Below, one piece after another: positions 10,026 through 50,305 of a stretch of 64,000 nucleotides of DNA (position 1 is the stretch's first letter; each line of letters starts with the position of its first letter). The stretch comes from a virus, in the IMG/VR virus record IMGVR_UViG_3300025914_000009, positions 60,984 through 124,983 of that record; one strand, 5' to 3'. The notes below the pieces were generated by a model. It saw nothing but the letters and a program-made list of their open reading frames with translations. It was not told the origin of the DNA and did no database searches. The position numbers and the translations under genes were made by a program.

Positions 10026-10341
10026 TGATGGATCAGTCTTTCTTTACTATTACATATTAGCTACCTCCAATAACTATGGAGGGTCAAGCTATTATTATTA
10101 CTCCAGTAGGACTGCTGTTACTACATTCTCCCCTGCGGGCTGGTCAAACTCATCAATTGACCCAGTGAGCAAATTTGAAAACCTCAAGGAGGAGGATAAG
10201 GAGGTTGATGTTGATCTTGATGAAGAAGTTAATGGAGATATGATGGAAGAGATGCAAGACGATCCTGATATTTCAGAGGTAGGAGATGACTCAGCAGGTG
10301 ATTCCTCTGGAGATTCATCAGGGGATGGTTCAGGTGACTAA
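9913..10341 (+). CDS. putative lipoprotein with acidic tail
   Basis: Signal peptide ending ITWGC; D/S/G-rich C-terminus. Confidence 0.65.
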   Translation: MRQYLLLALCLMLITWGCLENTHFHRYKKAKVYTERNDDGSVFLYYYILATSNNYGGSSYYYYSSRTAVTTFSPAGWSNSSIDPVSKFENLKEEDKEVDVDLDEEVNGDMMEEMQDDPDISEVGDDSAGDSSGDSSGDGSGD

Positions 10342-10443
10342 TTTCAAAAGGGCACATACAGCAAACATTATAACAATTCACCTACATTTGAATTAAAAGT
10401 GTGCCCTGTTAAGGTCTGCAACAGCAAATATATCCTTGTGGCA

Positions 10444-10510
10444 CTGGGGGTCAGTGGTGGAAATCCACTCTGTGGGGAAACCCAAAGTAGCTTAGTACTT
10501 AGAGCACCAG
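10444..10510 (+). ncRNA. YrlA-type permuted tRNA mimic (unit B cargo)
   Basis: Order is T arm, GAAA-closed acceptor stem, D arm; closed by ctgg/ccag. Confidence 0.8.
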
Positions 10511-10569
10511 TTGGAGAAAAAATGCAGACCTGTTAAGATACCTAACAGCAAACAATTTGATCCTCTTGT

Positions 10570-10640
10570 GGATTAGTAGCTTAATTGGTAAAGCGCCCAA
10601 TTGATAATTGGGAGATCCTAGTTCAATTCTAGGCTTTAAA
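10570..10640 (+). tRNA. tRNA-Ile(GAT)-like element with degenerate acceptor stem (unit C cargo)
   Basis: D arm gcttaattggtaaagc; anticodon arm cccaa-ttGATaa-ttggg; T arm cctag-ttcaatt-ctagg. Confidence 0.6.
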
Positions 10641-10686
10641 GAGGTATCTGATAAGGGTTCTTACAGCAAATATTAGCAAATGGAAA

Positions 10687-10824
10687 CCTTTGGTCGGAGG
10701 TTCAAATCCTCCCCTCCCAACCAGATTTGGTGTCACCCTAAGGTGTTCAGGACAGCCAAATCTGGTGACTAATCAACCTGACCATATCTGGTTGGGAGGT
10801 AGCTCAGTCTGGTTAGAGCAGAGG
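10687..10824 (+). ncRNA. permuted tRNA mimic with encoded ACCA (unit D cargo)
   Basis: 3' half (T arm + cctcccaACCA, 10696-10723) precedes 5' half (tgggagg + D arm, 10793-10820). Confidence 0.8.
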
Positions 10825-11371
10825 ATGCAACAAAAGAACCCTGATAAGGAGACTTACAGCAAAACAACTCAACTTTCAACCGTTTATTTGAAATAGAGAG
10901 TCTCCTGATAAAGTGCCACACAGCAAATATTAATTCTTTTTCAACAAAGACCGCCCCTGGATGGGAGGAAGCTAAAGAGGTTCGATTCCTCAGGCACTTG
11001 ATAAGGTGAGCAGCAGCATTTAACTAAATAATGGCCCTAAGGTTGGGAAAACTGAAACAGTCATACCGATACTCTCATAGGTTAATACGAAAAGAGTAGT
11101 GTCAAAGGCCCCAAGGGGTACTGGCGGCTATACAAAGAATATGCTCATCTGATAAGGTCACATACAGCAAAAAGCTAAAAGCAATCATCTTGTAAATGAT
11201 AAAAACTGTGACCTGATAAGTAGAGTCTGAAAACCTAAAACATTAATTACGTACCCCCACTACAGGTTGGACTATTTCTATTATCCTACGCCAAGTTCAT
11301 TGACATATGGTTGGTGAATTATCTCCTGTTTGATTTGATAGTAGTGGTGGTATGTCTAAAACCACATTAAC

Positions 11372-13932: not shown

Positions 13933-14406
13933 ATGGATGTACAATATTTTATAGATAAGTTTGGGGCTATTCCTGAAGAACAATGGACAACTGAGTGCTA
14001 TCAAGATAACCAAAACAGGAGATGTGCTCTTGGTCACTGCTCTCCAAATGTTATGAGTAAGTATAAAGATGAACGAGTGGAGAGCTTTGTTGAGATAGCA
14101 GAGAGTCAAGAGGAAGAAGGCAGAGTGCTTTTGCAGTTATTTTGGGATCATGAGCTCTGTGTTCCACCAGTGAATGATGGATACGAGATAAGGTACACAC
14201 AAGGTACCCCAAAGCAAAGAATCCTAGCTGCCCTAAGGGATATACAGAAGAAGGAACAGATGAAGACTGCTTCTATAATTCCTCTTTGCTCAGAGTGTGG
14301 CAAACCTATCACAGAATGTGATTGTGAAGAAGAGATTGACGAGGAAGAAGATTGGGGCGCAGGAGCTGCAGAAGAGGTAGATCATATAGTACTAGAAGTT
14401 ATTTAA
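13933..14406 (+). CDS. paralogous family B protein with CxxC...CxC tail
   Basis: IPEEQW...RCALGH...GTPKQRIL. Confidence 0.8.
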   Translation: MDVQYFIDKFGAIPEEQWTTECYQDNQNRRCALGHCSPNVMSKYKDERVESFVEIAESQEEEGRVLLQLFWDHELCVPPVNDGYEIRYTQGTPKQRILAALRDIQKKEQMKTASIIPLCSECGKPITECDCEEEIDEEEDWGAGAAEEVDHIVLEVI

Positions 14407-14412
14407 ATATTT

Positions 14413-14493
14413 GACCTAGACTTAGACTTAGACTTAAGCTCAAATCAGTCCCCAGACGATTTAGACTTAGACTTGTGTCAAAAGACTTAGGTT
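14413..14493 (+). repeat. AGACTT hexamer repeat cluster (6 copies)
   Basis: Copies at 14418, 14424, 14430, 14463, 14469, 14483. Confidence 0.85.
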
Positions 14494-14507
14494 CAGAACA
14501 ACAAAAT

Positions 14508-14942
14508 AAGATGTCAGGTAGTTAATTAAATCCATAGGTCGCAGGTTTGAATCCTGTCTCCGCCTCTGTTCCGTAGCATTTTTTGTTTAAACGGCTGGTG
14601 TTTCTACATTAGCCTCATTTTAAACCAAATACTCATCATATGGCAGGAAAAGCTGGTGGTAAAGGTGGCAGAAAGATCGGAAGAAACAAGCGTAGAAATG
14701 AAAGAAAAGGTAGTCCAATCTCCCTTTTTGTTAGAGGAAAGATCACTGCGCACAAGTATTGGGAATTAACTGGGTTGTCTTCTCGTATTAAGCAGAGAGA
14801 AGCTGCCTAAAGTATCTATTGTCCAATAATAGACAAGTCCAGAGAACTGAGTTTCTACTCCCTTCTCTGGCATTCAAGGCGGAGTAGTTCAGTTGACAGA
14901 ACAATGGAATAATATTAGCTTAAGGCTACTTGAAAACATCTT
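14508..14942 (+). ncRNA. circularly permuted tRNA-like RNA enclosing an ORF
   Basis: 3' half at 14531-14565, 5' half at 14878-14908; perfect ggcggag/ctccgcc and atgga/tccat; outer helix 14508-14521/14926-14942. Confidence 0.75.
14640..14810 (+). CDS. 56-aa Gly/Lys/Arg-rich basic protein
   Basis: Read manually: MAGKAGGKGGRKIGRNKRRNERKGSPISLFVRGKITAHKYWELTGLSSRIKQREAA. Confidence 0.7.
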   Translation: MAGKAGGKGGRKIGRNKRRNERKGSPISLFVRGKITAHKYWELTGLSSRIKQREAA

Positions 14943-14967
14943 GACAGTGAAAAACTGTATTAATTAC

Positions 14968-15010
14968 AGGGAGGGCGGATAGGATAGATTCCCCCCTCCC
15001 CTTTTTTTCT
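14968..15010 (+). terminator. intrinsic terminator
   Basis: agggaggg...ccctccct followed by a T run. Confidence 0.75.
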
Positions 15011-15025
15011 TCTTATCTATCACAA

Positions 15026-15119
15026 GGCGAAGTATGCAAATTGGTAAAGCAGTCCTCGTTGAGAGGATGGGACTAAATTCTGGGTAATGTCCATGGTAGT
15101 TCGAATCTATCCCTCGCCA
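15026..15119 (+). tRNA. class II (Leu/Ser-like) tRNA with aberrant anticodon arm
   Basis: ggcgaag/cctcgcc acceptor, Leu-type D loop, long variable arm, GTTCGAAT; anticodon loop non-canonical. Confidence 0.55.
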
Positions 15120-15132
15120 CTAAAATTCTTTT

Positions 15133-15366
15133 ATGAAAAGACTTCTTTATTTATGTATCATTCTCCTATCCTTTGGGGGATGTGGTGAGAAAAAGCCTAT
15201 AAAGGGTGATTGGATCTGGGTTCATATTGATACAGATCTTAGTGAATTCAATGGTAAAATCATCTCACAAATGATTCCCGGAGATGGAGATCAGATAACT
15301 ATTGTTTTTACTGACACAACTAGAGTTACTCTTAAAGCCTGCTCTAATCTTAAACTCTACAAGTAA
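15133..15366 (+). CDS. putative lipoprotein
   Basis: Signal peptide ending FGGC. Confidence 0.7.
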   Translation: MKRLLYLCIILLSFGGCGEKKPIKGDWIWVHIDTDLSEFNGKIISQMIPGDGDQITIVFTDTTRVTLKACSNLKLYK

Positions 15367-18174: not shown

Positions 18175-18394
18175 AATATTTCTGATTCAGCGGATTTGGA
18201 TAGATTCTCTTGAAAATCAATCAAGCAATGCAGTAGGATATGAACCTATAGGATGGTTGCCCACTGAAAAAGAAGCTCAGGATTTTGTTTCCAAAGGTAG
18301 GATGTTCACTCGTGCAGATTGCTGGGCCATAGGTTATGTAGAGAAAGAGATGCCTCAATTCACCTATAAAAAGCTAACAAAGTGTACTACGTAA
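18167..18394 (+). CDS. hypothetical protein
   Basis: Overlapping ORF. Confidence 0.65.
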   Translation: MNEIFLIQRIWIDSLENQSSNAVGYEPIGWLPTEKEAQDFVSKGRMFTRADCWAIGYVEKEMPQFTYKKLTKCTT

Positions 18395-19179
18395 TACAAG
18401 AAAACCTGTTCAGAGAATATGGTTTCAAAGCACTCATAAGTCATTTAAATAAAATGAGAGAGAGAAAGGGAGAAGGTTGTGAACCAATCTATGATCCTGA
18501 ACCTAATCATGAAATAGTTAAGTATATTCCCTTCTCTGAACACCTAGAGGTTAAAACCTCAAGAAAAGATGTATTCTTCTTTGGATCCACTAATGCTGGG
18601 CTAGTAGCCAGGAAGAAGTATGACTGGACTCCAGGTCATTTTATCAATGAGAACTTTACTATGGAGAAATACCTACCTGCCTTTGGAGAACACATGCTAA
18701 ATTCTGATGGGAAGATTATAGCAACTGACACTATTTTTACTGAGCCAGAGCATTTCTTTTGTAGACCCTTGGGGGATGGGAAAGAGTTCACAGGCCAATT
18801 ATTTAATATAAAGCAATGGTATGATTATGTATGGGATAATACCGATCTTTTAGAAAAGTGCCCAAATGTGCTTGTAGCTTCTCCAAAAACTACCCAACAG
18901 GAAATCAGGTGCTGGATGATTGATGGTGAACCAGTTACCATCAGTCAGTACAAAATAGGTTCTCGTGGTAACTACTTAAATATGGATCACAATGATGAAG
19001 CTATTATCTTTGCTCGTAAAATGGCTAAGATCTTCCAACCTGCCAGGGCTTTCTGCCTTGATATATGCCTCTATAATGATGAGTACTACATCGTGGAGTT
19101 GGGGTGTATTAACCACTGTGGCTTTTACGATGCTAATATGGGTAAACTTATTGATGCGCTTGAAAAAATGAAATTCTGA
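18382..19179 (+). CDS. ATP-grasp (DUF4343-like) protein
   Basis: F.RP....K.FTG, E.R, LDI, IVELGCINHCGFY. Confidence 0.8.
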   Translation: MYYVIQENLFREYGFKALISHLNKMRERKGEGCEPIYDPEPNHEIVKYIPFSEHLEVKTSRKDVFFFGSTNAGLVARKKYDWTPGHFINENFTMEKYLPAFGEHMLNSDGKIIATDTIFTEPEHFFCRPLGDGKEFTGQLFNIKQWYDYVWDNTDLLEKCPNVLVASPKTTQQEIRCWMIDGEPVTISQYKIGSRGNYLNMDHNDEAIIFARKMAKIFQPARAFCLDICLYNDEYYIVELGCINHCGFYDANMGKLIDALEKMKF

Positions 19180-19388: not shown

Positions 19389-19805
19389 ATGACAGGAATT
19401 ATAATCGGGAGATTTCAAGTACCTTTCCTCCATCCAGGGCACCTTCACCTGATCGCAACCTCAATAAGGGAATGCGATGAGACAATCATTTTGCTGGGTA
19501 CCCCGGCTCCAACTGTTGAGTCTATAAATGATGAAAGAAATCCTTATGGACTCCCTTCCAGAATAAGGATGCTTCAACAGATCTTTCCTCAAGTGAAGAT
19601 CCAAGTTTTATATGATTCCCCTACTGATGAGTTTTGGTCAATGGATGTGGATCATATAGCATCCAAGTATAAAAATCCAATCCTTTATCACTCCAGGGAC
19701 AGCTTCAAAAATCACTATGTGGGGAAGATTCCCCTAAAGGAAGTAGAAGAGGTGCCTGGGTTTTCGGGCACCAAACTAAGACAGCATGGAAGTATTCAAA
19801 GTTAA
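19389..19805 (+). CDS. NMN adenylyltransferase-like (HxGH cytidylyltransferase fold)
   Basis: GRFQ..LHPGH, RNP, SGT.LR. Confidence 0.85.
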   Translation: MTGIIIGRFQVPFLHPGHLHLIATSIRECDETIILLGTPAPTVESINDERNPYGLPSRIRMLQQIFPQVKIQVLYDSPTDEFWSMDVDHIASKYKNPILYHSRDSFKNHYVGKIPLKEVEEVPGFSGTKLRQHGSIQS

Positions 19806-19851: not shown

Positions 19852-19952
19852 AGTCAGATAGCTCAGTTGGTTAGAGTACCTGCTAGGGCTTGATCGAAAG
19901 ATCAACGAAGCTGCCGCACAGGAGGTCAGGAGTTCGAATCTCCCTCTGACTT
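19852..19952 (+). tRNA. tRNA-like RNA with expanded anticodon arm
   Basis: Acceptor agtcaga/tctgact, canonical D and T arms; about 36 nt containing a GAAA hairpin replace the anticodon loop. Confidence 0.7.
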
Positions 19953-20212: not shown

Positions 20213-20270
20213 AGGGGGATAGCTCAGTGGTAGAGCATTCTTGTCGGAAGTTCGATTCTTCCTCCCCCTA
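20213..20270 (+). ncRNA. anticodon-less mini-tRNA (58 nt)
   Basis: aggggga/tccccct, D arm gctc-agtggta-gagc, 9-nt linker, T arm ggaag-ttcgatt-cttcc. Confidence 0.75.
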
Positions 20271-46885: not shown

Positions 46886-47253
46886 AAAGAACGCCACTTA
46901 AAAGGAAAAATAGTAGGATGAAGAATAGCTCTTTGAGGAGAAAGAGAAAAATAGCAGAAGAGAAAATTGAAGAAGAGAGTTTGAGAATGAAGAACTTCTT
47001 CCAAGGTCTCTGGAACAAAATACCTGCTTCCCTGAGACACTGCTGGTCTTGTGATAAGCTTCTATATGAGCCTGTAAGAAGCTATTACTTTGATCATTTA
47101 ATCGAAAAGAGTAAGAAACCAGAACTAGCATATGACGAGTATAATATATTCTTATGCTGTCTGGAATGTCATGCCCTTAAAACAGATGGGCATCCTACAG
47201 AAGTACATCAAAAAGCTATAGAAGCTGCAAAAAGAAGATTTGGTTTAGTGTAA
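46882..47253 (+). CDS. HNH/NinG-like nuclease
   Basis: MKRTPLKR, CWSC, DH, N...CC..CH. Confidence 0.75.
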   Translation: MKRTPLKRKNSRMKNSSLRRKRKIAEEKIEEESLRMKNFFQGLWNKIPASLRHCWSCDKLLYEPVRSYYFDHLIEKSKKPELAYDEYNIFLCCLECHALKTDGHPTEVHQKAIEAAKRRFGLV

Positions 47254-47259
47254 ATTTTC

Positions 47260-47267
47260 TATATTTG
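47260..47267 (+). promoter_or_regulatory. -7 element TAnnTTTG with -33 TTTG
   Basis: TTTG at 47239, TATATTTG, then 4 nt to ATG 47272. Confidence 0.7.
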
Positions 47268-47271
47268 CACT

Positions 47272-47535
47272 ATGGCAACACTCGAAACATTACAAGCACA
47301 GGGACATCCTGTTACTTTAAGCTATGGTCAGAAAGCTGTAGGTCTTACATTCAATCCTGGTAAAGATCCAGCAGTAGAGTTAGTAAAACAGAAATATGCT
47401 GATCTCATTGATCTACTAGATTCTATGAGGACTGCAGCAGAAGGATCAGAGAAGAAAAGAATGTATTCTGTAGCTATCACAGATGCCCAAGCAAGCCAGA
47501 TGTGGGCAGTAAAAGCAATAACCTGGCAATATTAA
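47272..47535 (+). CDS. Acb2/Tad1-like cyclic-nucleotide sponge
   Basis: VGLTFNP...K...A.LID...KR..SVAIT..Q...MWAVKA.T. Confidence 0.65.
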   Translation: MATLETLQAQGHPVTLSYGQKAVGLTFNPGKDPAVELVKQKYADLIDLLDSMRTAAEGSEKKRMYSVAITDAQASQMWAVKAITWQY

Positions 47536-47539
47536 AACT

Positions 47540-47902
47540 ATGTCTAACATTTTCTTCTATCAGAGAGAAGTAACGAGAAAAGTAAAAGTGGAAGATCCGA
47601 AAGAAGGAGAGCCCACAGAAAAAGATGTAACAGAAACTTATTGGGATTGTTTCAACTTGAACAAGGTAATTAGAGGTCATTGGACAAGCCCTGACACCTT
47701 CACAATATTGATGGATGATGGGCATGAGCAGACAGATTCAGTAGATAACCCTGTATTTGGGAAGAGTGGAAAGTTAGTGAAGATTGATAAAGTGAGACAG
47801 AGAGATTGGTATATGTCCCAAATACCTCTCAACAAGCAGGATGCACTGAGGTACAGAGCAACAGTGGAAGCAAGGGTACAGACAGGTTTTATGGAGGGTT
47901 AA
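47540..47902 (+). CDS. conserved hypothetical protein
   Basis: FFY.R, FNLNKVIR, DDGHE. Confidence 0.8.
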   Translation: MSNIFFYQREVTRKVKVEDPKEGEPTEKDVTETYWDCFNLNKVIRGHWTSPDTFTILMDDGHEQTDSVDNPVFGKSGKLVKIDKVRQRDWYMSQIPLNKQDALRYRATVEARVQTGFMEG

Positions 47903-47906
47903 AATG

Positions 47907-47940
47907 AAAAAGAGGGGTACAAAACCCCTCTTTTTTTTTT
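47907..47940. terminator. bidirectional terminator at the strand convergence
   Basis: A5-gaggggt-acaaa-acccctc-T10. Confidence 0.85.
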
Positions 47941-47941
47941 C

Positions 47942-48070
47942 TTACTGTCCTCTACCACCAGTTTTATAACCGTAGGGATTTTTCCCTGTACCAGTTCCAC
48001 TTCCAGGCTTTTTAGGGCCCCTAGGGGGAACTGGGGTGGCAGACATCTTCTTCGCTTTCTTTTTGGCCAT
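47942..48070 (-). CDS. small basic Gly/Pro/Lys-rich protein (42 aa)
   Basis: Read manually: MAKKKAKKMSATPVPPRGPKKPGSG... Confidence 0.55.
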   Translation of the reverse strand: MAKKKAKKMSATPVPPRGPKKPGSGTGTGKNPYGYKTGGRGQ

Positions 48071-48076
48071 TTTTCA

Positions 48077-48394
48077 TTAGGATTTAGGCTTGAATAATTG
48101 ATTTACACCATCTTCCAGCTCTTCAAGATCATCTTTAGAAATATCACTAGCCTCTACGATTACTCCTTGCTCCACTCCATTTTTGAATATCTCCTGTACA
48201 GTATTAAAAGCCTCATATTTCAGAGCTATACTAGAACCTTCTGCAGTATTCACTTCTCTTGTAAGGCAGTGGTATAAAGCAGCTAGTTGCTGACCTGTGA
48301 TTTCAAATACATCTGTTGGCTCCCACTTGTAATTTGCATTGGGATTAAAAACAGGCTTAGTTTTGGAAGCCTTCATTGCTGTTACTTTTGCCAT
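48077..48394 (-). CDS. hypothetical protein
   Basis: Y.W.P.D.F.ITG. Confidence 0.75.
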   Translation of the reverse strand: MAKVTAMKASKTKPVFNPNANYKWEPTDVFEITGQQLAALYHCLTREVNTAEGSSIALKYEAFNTVQEIFKNGVEQGVIVEASDISKDDLEELEDGVNQLFKPKS

Positions 48395-48399
48395 TGGTT

Positions 48400-48681
48400 T
48401 TAGAAATTTATTAAATATGAAATATTGTTTCCTGCCTTCATGCTCTTTGAGAACTCAACGTGTATTCCCAGCATAGTATGAAACCTTTTTATAACATCAA
48501 AGATAGTAAGAAAGGTCAATGGAGTAGAAGGGCATATTCTTACCAGAACTCCATCTTCTTTTCTATATATCATCATGTCAGAATCAAAATCTACTGCCTC
48601 TATAAGACCCTCAAGGTAGTTTAAGTAGGTAGATTCATTATCTGGAATTACTGGTGGAAAGTTAAGTCTCTGAACTTGCAT
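48400..48681 (-). CDS. hypothetical protein
   Basis: Coupled ORF. Confidence 0.7.
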   Translation of the reverse strand: MQVQRLNFPPVIPDNESTYLNYLEGLIEAVDFDSDMMIYRKEDGVLVRICPSTPLTFLTIFDVIKRFHTMLGIHVEFSKSMKAGNNISYLINF

Positions 48682-49085
48682 TAGGACAAAGTTAGTAAAT
48701 ATTTTACTCTGTACCCAAGTCCACTTAAATCTGCTGCTTTATTTGATAAGGCCCACCACTTAGTTTCTTCCCCATACTCATAGAGCTCATCTGCAAACTT
48801 ACAGAGCTCATCAAGAAGTTTATCATGGTTTGCATTTTTATCTACAGGAATCTTAGGAGAGTCAGTAAATCTTTTAGGTCTTATATACCCAAGGAGGAGC
48901 TCTGAGATCTCATCCTTAAACTCTACGAGGCCCTTATAAAGCTTATCAAGAGCTTTATGCTCAGCGAATGAAGTGGTCTGTAGATGCTTGAAATGAGCCC
49001 AGTCATGGAAGTAAAATAACATCTGCATTGCCCTATCGGGCGTCATCTTCCCTCCTCCCTGAGGGGTAGGTAAATAACTTGCCAT
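48681..49085 (-). CDS. ferritin/Dps-like (DUF5856-like) protein
   Basis: H..HLQTTSFAEHKAL..LY, KYLLTL. Confidence 0.75.
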   Translation of the reverse strand: MASYLPTPQGGGKMTPDRAMQMLFYFHDWAHFKHLQTTSFAEHKALDKLYKGLVEFKDEISELLLGYIRPKRFTDSPKIPVDKNANHDKLLDELCKFADELYEYGEETKWWALSNKAADLSGLGYRVKYLLTLS

Positions 49086-49567
49086 TACTTATTGATTATT
49101 GCTTTAAAGATAGGTGGCCCAAGAAAGTATAGAATAATACCTACAAGCATTATCCATGCCCATAGAGGAGTCTTTTTCTTCACAACAGGAACATCTATAG
49201 TCTTTGTCTCCGAATGATATACTTGTGCGGTCTTTAATTTGACCAAACTATCTATCACTCTAACTAAGCTATCTGTCTTGCAATTCACAGTCAATCTACC
49301 TTTACTTATATCCACTTTAGCCTTTACTCTCCCTGAGGGAGATGTAGCTTCGTTATGATACTGAATATCTGGATAGGGGATACTATCATGTATTATAACA
49401 GCATCTGCAGGAACGACGTCTGTAACTGTTACATAAATAGTAGTATCTTTCACCACAATACTATCTTTTGTGACAATTTGTGGAGGAAATTTCTGAAGGC
49501 ATCTCTTCTGAGTAACACAAGATGCAAGAAACAGTATCAGGAGTCCTATTGTGATTATCCTTTTCAT
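49085..49567 (-). CDS. unimolecular spanin-like lipoprotein
   Basis: Lipobox LASC, beta-rich body, C-terminal TM segment. Confidence 0.6.
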   Translation of the reverse strand: MKRIITIGLLILFLASCVTQKRCLQKFPPQIVTKDSIVVKDTTIYVTVTDVVPADAVIIHDSIPYPDIQYHNEATSPSGRVKAKVDISKGRLTVNCKTDSLVRVIDSLVKLKTAQVYHSETKTIDVPVVKKKTPLWAWIMLVGIILYFLGPPIFKAIINK

Positions 49568-49752
49568 TCTTTTTCCTTTTCTTTCTTACCTCTTAGTGCC
49601 TTCACTATGACTATGCTATAGTGAACAATTGCTAATATTGATACGATTGAGCTTAACACAACTCCGATTGGTGGTAGGCTTGCGACCATGTTTAATAATA
49701 GTGTTACGGGCCACAGAACAGCACTGAAAATTTTGTCTATTTCTGAAGACAT
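49564..49752 (-). CDS. holin-like membrane protein
   Basis: Two TM segments, charged C-terminus, next to the spanin. Confidence 0.5.
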   Translation of the reverse strand: MSSEIDKIFSAVLWPVTLLLNMVASLPPIGVVLSSIVSILAIVHYSIVIVKALRGKKEKEKE

Positions 49753-49810
49753 TATTTTGACTTTTTAGGTTAACAAAATTAGGGGGGTTACTGCCCCCCT
49801 AATAAGGTCA

Positions 49811-50305
49811 TTAAGTAGTAGTTGTAGTAGTTGTTGTGCTGGTTGTTGTAGTAGTAGTTGTTGGGCCTGCATGTGCTACTATTGTATACACATCGCCTGC
49901 TGCAGTGAATGTATAAGTCAATGTGCCTGTAGTGCCTGTCTGGTTGGACAGGATAGCTCCTGTAGTGTCGTCAACAACAATGAGGCTCTTAGTAGTATCA
50001 GTTCCTGTCACAGTTACTGTAACGCTCTGTCCACTTCCTGCAGCAAATGTACCTGAAGCACTTGTAAGAGTATCTTCTACAGTTGCTCCACCTACAGTTA
50101 GTACAAATTCCCCATTTGAAGCAGGTGCCAGATAGGCATAATTTGACATTGGGAGAGCACAACATTCATCGTTGGTGATTTCTTTCCAGAAATATCCTCT
50201 ACCTCCTTCAGGGGGAGCATATCTTAATATTAATGTTCCTGGAACCACCTGTCCAAGTTTGTCGAACTTGACAAAAGCCCTTAATCTAGGGTTTCGCTTT
50301 GCCAT
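49811..50305 (-). CDS. probable virion protein with C-terminal poly-Thr tail
   Basis: Beta-rich body ending PTTTTTTTSTTTTTTTT. Confidence 0.75.
   Translation of the reverse strand: MAKRNPRLRAFVKFDKLGQVVPGTLILRYAPPEGGRGYFWKEITNDECCALPMSNYAYLAPASNGEFVLTVGGATVEDTLTSASGTFAAGSGQSVTVTVTGTDTTKSLIVVDDTTGAILSNQTGTTGTLTYTFTAAGDVYTIVAHAGPTTTTTTTSTTTTTTTT

Follow-up and report, generated by a model that had tools for sequence, protein, structure and literature searches.

Permuted transfer RNA (tRNA) genes, in which the 3′ half lies upstream of the 5′ half, are known from Cyanidioschyzon merolae and from certain green algae and archaea; their intervening sequence is taken out by RNase P and the 3′ pathway, and circularisation at a bulge-helix-bulge motif makes true decoding tRNAs of them. 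In two-piece transfer-messenger RNA (tmRNA), encoded by a permuted ssrA gene, a permuted tRNA-like domain ends up as two base-paired pieces, the reading frame lies outside the acceptor loop, and alanine identity and pseudoknots are present. In MALAT1/mascRNA and in mitochondrial 'tRNA punctuation', a tRNA-shaped element lets RNase P and RNase Z set the ends of the neighbouring RNA. For the permuted tRNA mimics of the YrlA type, Chen et al. 2014 (PMC4201824) report that the YrlA of Mycobacterium smegmatis is the one member with an acceptor stem of 7 base pairs (bp), that RNase P RNA cuts it in vitro, and that it is cleaved and CCA-tailed in vivo, giving two fragments. We describe here an element at positions 14508-14942 of a 64,000-nucleotide (nt) stretch of phage DNA (hereafter the window, which comprises bases 60984-124983 of the 124,983-nt IMG/VR virus record IMGVR_UViG_3300025914_000009, rated complete), in which the two halves of a permuted tRNA body enclose a protein-coding gene. 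The cassette is a conserved 'gene-in-a-tRNA' of a clade of large soil phages, and we propose that host tRNA enzymes may excise a small mRNA from it.

The permuted tRNA body and the gene it encloses

In window coordinates, the cassette consists of the following parts.

14508-14523, + strand: 5′ strand of an outer helix that stands in place of the anticodon loop; pairs with 14924-14942
14531-14566, + strand: 3′ tRNA half, with the 3′ strand of the anticodon stem, a 5-nt variable loop, the T arm, the 3′ strand of the acceptor stem, U73 and C74
14593-14614, + strand: predicted hairpin with a TTCT loop, in the 5′ untranslated part of the insert
14640-14810, + strand: gene, stop codon included, for a basic, predicted helical protein of 56 amino acids (aa), lying between the acceptor strands; 15 homologues
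14839-14870, + strand: 12-bp hairpin with a TTCT loop and a 2x2 internal loop; 7 nt lie between it and the 5′ half
14878-14908, + strand: 5′ tRNA half, containing the acceptor stem's 5′ strand (7 nt), U8-A9, the D arm, A26 and the 5′ strand of the anticodon stem
14909-14925, + strand: 17-nt strand of the internal loop that separates the anticodon stem from the outer helix; 14 of the 17 positions are invariant in the window and its relatives L002 and L003
14926-14942, + strand: 3′ strand of the outer helix, with an AAA bulge at 14933-14935

A first-pass annotation had listed the two halves, the outer helix, a 56-aa open reading frame (ORF), two hairpins with TTCT loops and a terminator at this locus, and every one of these features was found in its place. 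Its description of the topology as YrlA-like was borne out too, the order being T arm, acceptor stem closed on the far side, and D arm. The 3′ half comprises 14531-14564 plus the U at 14565 (U73), with a T stem of 5 bp, a T loop of 7 nt that includes U56 and an acceptor strand of 7 nt; the 5′ half, 312 nt further downstream in the window, has a D stem of 4 bp and a D loop of 8 nt that includes A19. The anticodon stem carries no anticodon loop and opens into an asymmetric internal loop (7-9 nt vs 15-17 nt), beyond which 14508-14521 pairs with 14926-14942 as 7 + 7 bp around the 3-nt bulge. Two more pairs are added by 14522-14523 and 14924-14925 (U.G in the window and L003, C-G in L002), the outer helix having 14-16 bp overall. 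When tRNA position numbers are assigned from established tRNA knowledge and read on the window sequence, the nucleotides of the tertiary contacts are found to be kept: U8, A14, R15:Y48, G18:U55, A21, G53:C61 and T54:A58. At the elbow, window, L002 and L003 all have A19:U56, a covarying version of the usual G19:C56. Among the phage's tRNA genes, TTC stands at positions 54-56 in 22 of 23 (21 in the register of the script, tRNA-His being offset by one base), and one tRNA-Arg (genome position 49959) has a swapped elbow pair, C19:G56.

Folding programs agree with this architecture. The minimum free energy (MFE) fold of 14500-14950 includes every proposed helix (-121 kcal/mol, z = -2.29, with 2 of 100 shuffles as stable), and the long-range acceptor helix has a pairing probability of 0.87-1.0 in the window, L002 and L003 when the element is folded alone. 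In its natural order the element is not called by ARAGORN, and Rfam returns nothing at gathering score and chance-level matches only at E <= 10 (14400-15130); with the halves joined by script, ARAGORN reports a 73-nt cloverleaf in all three sequences. A lax scan for a T arm, a 7-nt complement and a D arm gave 3 + 1 matches in the genome against 0-3 in shuffles; that the element is more than chance is shown by conservation and not by the motif alone.

Loci with DNA for comparison came from a scan of IMG/VR (4 loci from 45 pattern matches) and one of Joint Genome Institute metagenomes (6 loci from 58). L008 and L009 equal L002 over the region and L012 is the same contig as L005, so that merging left two distinct relatives with the frame (the L002 type and L003) and five loci with the ORF only; for about 11 of the 15 close ORF homologues no contig enters this set. 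In L002 as in L003 the ORF has a half on either side, and the acceptor loop measures 255, 312 (window) or 402 nt. For the proposed structure (47 pairs, or 141 cells, in the alignment of window, L002 and L003), pairing is found in 97.9% of the cells, compared with 35-45% when the partners are slid by 1-3 columns. Both sides have changed in 15 of the 47 pairs (slid partners give 0-2), and none of 500 shuffles matched the observed values. Loss of pairing in relatives, which the earlier annotation had named as the outcome that would speak against its fold, is therefore not what these sequences display. The double changes fall in the acceptor stem (4/7), the T stem (2/5), the distal outer helix (3/7) and the 3′ untranslated hairpin (6/12); D stem and anticodon stem are fully paired and without variation, and thus uninformative on covariation. 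Contigs of four further runs, from three soil or viral studies, cover the halves at 80-99% likeness. One of these contigs (X9; 3,720 nt) reaches across the gap between the 3′ and the 5′ half, with 309 letters against the window's 279, and adds one double change to the outer helix, C14926T accompanying G14521A. Identity of the halves is 86-95%, while synonymous sites of the ORF are near saturation (proportion of synonymous differences, pS, 0.7-0.9), which argues that the RNA frame is under a constraint of its own.

Wider searches did not enlarge the set. Nothing in 50,697 GenBank phage records matched 14400-15150 by blastn, the exact 24-nt T-arm/acceptor pattern had no match in IMG/VR, a further frame pattern search recovered only two contigs already known, and a scan of genome contigs with the ORF alignment gave 25 pattern matches, none of which was confirmed.

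The ORF, for its part, is a real gene, as had been supposed. Its 15 homologues (47-58 aa) share a strongly conserved core and a conserved ATG, and a profile search of 1.84 billion representatives found 49 clusters (50% identity; 45-82 aa). The ratio of nonsynonymous to synonymous differences (pN/pS) is 0.08-0.15, and third codon positions hold 19-26 of the 33-35 differences over 47 ungapped codons; by these substitution patterns the ORF is protein-coding and under purifying selection. Taken together, the comparisons show that the fold is under selection and that both it and the enclosed gene are real.

The 56-aa protein is basic, with an N-terminus rich in Gly, Lys and Arg, and the AlphaFold2 model has four helices (mean predicted local distance difference test score, pLDDT, 77). 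No significant match was found in Pfam, NCBIfam or PHROGs. A weak XkdX-like Pfam match, seen in 3 of 49 members (best E 0.0036), reflects a short motif of the GKI(T/S)xxxYxxxTG type. The family profile searched against PDB sequences gave an EF-hand fragment as its best match (E 0.53, not significant), Foldseek with the model gave no match in the PDB and a best E of 4.2 in BFVD, and the best score in the ESM Atlas, 0.75, was not significant. A role in nucleic-acid binding would be a guess from composition alone.

Around the ORF, the untranslated parts of the insert differ in behaviour. The 5′ part varies in length (74, 17 and 166 nt in window, L002 and L003); the hairpin at 14593-14614 has a counterpart of other sequence at the same relative place in L003 and none in L002, where 17 nt separate U73 from the ATG. 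The 3′ part is kept (67, 67 and 62 nt), and its hairpin at 14839-14870 pairs in 97% of cells, with changes on both sides in 6 of 12 pairs, and keeps its spacing to both the stop codon and G+1, ending 7-8 nt before the latter.

A search for homologues with and without the insert, as suggested with the first-pass annotation, gave an answer in one direction: the ORF occurs without the frame at all five distant loci, and no frame without the ORF was found among the relatives seen. The free-standing ORFs (L004, L005, L010, L011 and L013) have 52-70% identity, and their loci yielded no halves by blastn-short and none (0/5) in a relaxed T-arm/acceptor/D-arm scan that does recover L002 and L003. The ORF of L013 precedes three tRNA genes and that of L005 lies about 0.8 kilobases (kb) from a tRNA-Met gene. 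The free-standing homologues agree with a secondary joining of ORF and frame, a history that fits the sequences. In L011 (843-1082 and ~440-520) a group I intron (RF00028, 95.5 bits) adjoins the ORF homologue, and before the intron lies a stretch that resembles a tmRNA 5′ end by eye, where ARAGORN made no call. Chaperonin-like neighbours were read from translations in two other loci, GroEL-like downstream in L004 (~3205 onward) and GroES-like upstream in L010 (~1300-1700).

Proposed excision of a mini-mRNA and its alternatives

We propose that the tRNA machinery of the host excises a mini-mRNA from this cassette and leaves a two-piece tRNA mimic behind, a reading that sequence and analogy suggest and to which we give a probability of about one half. 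In a single transcript, the halves (255-402 nt apart) would come together as a complete L-shaped tRNA body, comprising T arm and D arm besides an acceptor stem of 7 bp and an anticodon stem of 5 bp, the outer helix replacing the anticodon loop; the acceptor 'loop' would then be a complete small mRNA for the 56-aa basic protein. To the host's maturation enzymes this fold would pass for a pre-tRNA, with one and the same RNA supplying at its two ends the 5′ leader and the 3′ trailer. Cleavage by RNase P would be expected between A14877 and G14878 and that by the 3′-end pathway at or beside U14565/C14566, and the host would complete the CCA. The freed mRNA would be about 310 nt long, with its 3′ end 7 nt past the covarying hairpin at 14839-14870, which might shield it from 3′ exonucleases, while the nicked mimic would stay joined by acceptor stem, anticodon stem and outer helix. 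The purpose may be the mRNA, the mimic or both.

The cleavage of the M. smegmatis YrlA cited above provides a precedent for such excision. The predicted fold has what bacterial RNase P requires: the acceptor (7 bp) stacks on the T stem (5 bp), the elbow is intact, and the leader is single-stranded and rich in A and U. At the other cut, U73 is followed by C74 without CA in window, L002 and L003. C74 is present in all 23 tRNA genes that ARAGORN calls in the phage genome (at genome positions 47098-50268, 59591 and 76009), with full CCA in 2 and with a genome C frequency of 0.19; since it has C74 without the CCA, the element ends like the phage's tRNA genes, which must use host trimming and CCA completion. 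The A at position -1 of the element is shared by 5 of these 23 genes.

Several observations weigh against excision. A(-1) is able to pair with U73 in all three sequences, giving an 8-bp stem, and such a pair could shift or weaken RNase P cleavage. A search of the phage genes for a CCA-adding enzyme, RtcB or a canonical TROVE protein found none and, CCA not being encoded, each step would depend on the host. Conservation of the outer helix and of 14909-14925 is not needed for excision, and the RNA body thus probably has a further function. When L003 is folded at greater length, with leader and terminator included, its MFE structure lacks the cloverleaf. The covariation counts rest on three full-length sequences and show consistency, not statistical proof, and the sequencing runs found for 14300-15200 gave DNA contigs, with none listed as RNA that would speak to co-transcription of the halves or to cleavage.

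Alternatively, the fold might never be cut and might act in cis as a clamp on the mRNA ends, protecting them from exonucleases or recruiting an elbow- or acceptor-binding factor for translation control. The conservation of the fold and the pairing probabilities apply to such a scaffold just as well, the conserved outer helix would hold the transcript ends together, the possible A(-1):U73 pair would give it an 8-bp stem, and, according to PMC4201824, Salmonella YrlA and Yrn1 of Deinococcus radiodurans are uncleaved at the analogous site. We nevertheless consider it rather unlikely, because the 7-bp acceptor, the single-stranded leader and the phage-typical C74 are the very features that make M. 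smegmatis YrlA a substrate, because the start codon of L002 lies 17 nt from the stem and would leave a ribosome little space unless the RNA were cut, and because a dedicated conserved hairpin just before G+1 is better explained as a new 3′ end. Doubtful to a like degree is the notion that a YrlA-like mimic, serving as decoy or adaptor, is alone functional and that the ORF merely landed in a tolerant loop, uncoupled from it. The same phage does have a second permuted element, at 10696-10799, with a 73-nt non-coding insert in its acceptor loop, in a region rich in tRNA mimics and Y-RNA-like units; the insert of the cassette varies in length (255, 312 and 402 nt), and the five distant ORF homologues are all free-standing. 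Against an uncoupled passenger, the association of ORF and frame is kept in every frame-bearing relative seen, at a pS of 0.7-0.9, a frame without the ORF was not met with among those relatives, and conservation of the frame extends to the 3′ untranslated hairpin and to the hairpin's distance from G+1.

Two further origins of the arrangement carry far less weight. A tandem tRNA-ORF-tRNA that lost its outer halves, with pairing as functionless shared ancestry, would be a plausible beginning, given ORF homologues in or beside tRNA genes elsewhere (L013, L005) and a resemblance of 14494-14512 to 14897-14915 (79% of 19 nt) that might be a relic of a D arm and anticodon stem; that weak repeat is, however, absent from L002 and L003, and a decaying remnant is contradicted by the double changes in 15 of 47 pairs, by halves more conserved than the synonymous sites of the ORF, and by an outer helix of 14-16 bp with covariation of its own that is foreign to any tRNA, so that we hold this reading to be very improbable. 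A two-piece tmRNA-like RNA from a permuted gene is scarcely credible: the tRNA-like domain is permuted and an open reading frame is near, but the latter lies within the acceptor loop and not past the anticodon-stem side, has a conserved ATG and protein-level selection along its whole length, position 3:70 is C-G or G-C and not G.U, and no tmRNA model, standard or permuted, matches at E <= 10.

Within the excision reading we can also imagine, as a speculation that we think improbable, that the cassette makes an RNA-protein pair, in which the 56-aa protein would bind the CCA-tailed two-piece mimic, devoid of an anticodon and marked by the unusual A19:U56 elbow, and the particle would act on the tRNA-directed machinery of the host, for instance by decoying defence toxins or surveillance factors aimed at the acceptor end or elbow of tRNA.

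Flanks, phage and surrounding RNA island

The cassette is flanked by further conserved features.

14407-14500, + strand: conserved leader with hexamer repeats of the TTAGAC type, immediately following the upstream gene's stop codon
14944-14958, + strand: small hairpin between outer helix and terminator; 5 bp in window, L002 and L003, with unrelated sequences
14969-15008, + strand: terminator-like hairpin and T-run, with a conserved 16-nt loop; double changes in 3 of 10 pairs
15026-15120, + strand: neighbouring tRNA-like RNA outside the permuted fold, with a 5-nt 'anticodon' loop and a conserved 24-nt variable insert

The leader is nearly invariant in window, L002 and L003, though the synonymous sites of the ORF are near-saturated, and within the window its TTAGAC-type repeat is found nowhere else. 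Promoter or operator DNA and an RNA element are candidates for its nature. As a structured RNA it was tried and rejected, with no compensatory change in 30 predicted pairs, 5 of which are broken by the window's own changes. Its segment 14429-14451 could pair with 14906-14928, a pairing kept through G.U wobbles only and overlapping the outer helix. A sigma-70 promoter scan of the upstream + strand found none, and a Bacteroidota-type promoter could not be placed there by eye. At the other end, the terminator-like hairpin lies only 17 nt before the next tRNA-like gene, so that read-through appears likely. The anticodon that ARAGORN assigns to the latter differs by relative (Gln, Leu and Val), and because the assignment changes among the three this RNA is not a decoder. 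The T arm of this neighbour (15103-15112) and the terminator loop (14982-14991) are complementary in the window.

G+C makes up about 38% of the window, whose genes lie on the + strand as far as about 48 kb. Of the phage's tRNA genes, 21 form a normal cluster and one more is found elsewhere in the genome. A Shine-Dalgarno motif precedes 4 of 96 ORF starts, against a background of 14%, and an A-rich stretch is seen at -10 to -14; from this we take the host, as a guess by general knowledge, to be of the Bacteroidota type. Window DNA is present in rhizosphere metagenome runs, and the relatives come from soil and viral metagenomes.

The element belongs to an island of 13 kb made up of Y-RNA-like units and of tRNA mimics that lack an anticodon; the island as a whole is a promising system for the study of phage non-coding RNA. 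A tandem array of about eight Y-RNA-like units occupies 10340-11220 and holds 7 of the window's copies of the Ro-binding handle ACAGCAAA; each unit has a short terminal stem, with ACAGCAAA after the 5′ strand and (C)TGATAAG after the 3′ strand. The inner modules include a tRNA body without acceptor stem (10575-10635; RF00005, 52.6 bits), plain hairpins and a permuted YrlA-like body at 10688-10827, whose match to the YrlA model RF02553 (31.9 bits) is under the gathering score of 69. Within the last lies the second permuted tRNA-like element, at 10696-10799, whose halves are placed at 10696 and 10793; it is a shorter counterpart of the cassette without an ORF, in which the 73-nt acceptor loop is a hairpin and A-CCA is encoded after the acceptor 3′ strand.

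A Ro-like ORF at 7548-9254, 5.3 kb upstream of the cassette, matches phrog_850 ('RNA-binding protein') and DUF7788/DUF2828, not Pfam TROVE; the phage of L003 has a 74%-identical homologue, about 5 kb from its element by record-coordinate reckoning. Copies of ACAGCAAA stand around the start of the window's Ro-like gene (7520 and 7555; span 7520-7562) and directly after its stop (9263-9270), from which its own mRNA may carry Y-RNA-type handles. Immediately upstream, on the opposite strand, is a GIY-YIG/NUMOD-type homing-endonuclease-like gene (6924-7499, - strand). Further downstream in the window, two aberrant tRNA-like genes, one with 36 nt replacing the anticodon loop (19852-19952) and one with the whole anticodon arm reduced to 4 nt (20213-20270), adjoin genes for an R2K-type ATP-grasp protein (18382-19179) and a cytidylyltransferase-like protein (19389-19805).

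Comparison with known systems

The permuted tRNA genes of the Cyanidioschyzon type differ from the phage element in their maturation and product. It has no bulge-helix-bulge (one 3-nt bulge on one strand, and no 3-4-3 motif as that junction is usually defined) and no anticodon loop, and its intervening sequence is a gene. From two-piece tmRNA it differs in lacking the outside frame, the alanine identity and the pseudoknots. The elements of MALAT1/mascRNA and of 'tRNA punctuation' are contiguous, one per flank, whereas here a single permuted body would set both ends of an mRNA, and would do so in a phage.

The likeness to YrlA (RF02553) goes further. Both have the order T arm, acceptor-like stem, D arm, with an 'anticodon stem' that runs into a terminal helix, and both keep the tertiary nucleotides of tRNA; a further likeness may be the Ro-like gene and the Y-RNA-like units that the phage has 3-7 kb upstream of the element. 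The 7-bp acceptor stem is common to the phage element and the M. smegmatis member described in PMC4201824. Differences lie in the elbow, A19:U56 in the phage element, and in the acceptor loop, which there measures 255-402 nt and is, by its substitution pattern, a translated gene. The YrlA model has no match to 14400-15130 at E <= 10, and the absence of a Ro-binding handle, remarked on in the first-pass annotation, holds: of the 11 ACAGCAAA copies in the window none falls in 14400-15130, and the Ro-binding motif GNCGAAN0-1G, as given in PMC4201824, does not occur within 14508-14942. With neither model match nor Ro handle, the element falls outside YrlA membership, and by analogy would work like a YrlA-type permuted tRNA mimic and like the tRNA-shaped processing signals. 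On the whole, then, the interpretation of the first-pass annotation is partly supported.

Full-text literature searches, covering listings and the starts of abstracts, found no description of a permuted tRNA, or of a mimic of one, with a protein gene inside; the phage YrlA supplements of PMC4201824, which possibly include long inserts, lay outside their scope. A permuted tRNA body enclosing a translated conserved gene is absent from Rfam and appears to be an undescribed layout. Permuted tRNA mimics such as YrlA and tRNA-shaped processing signals were already known, and what appears to be new is a body that encloses a gene. If excision is true, one fold recognised by the host defines both ends of an mRNA and yields a split tRNA mimic, which would bear on how phages exploit or jam the tRNA biology of their hosts and would offer a natural design for RNA scaffolds.

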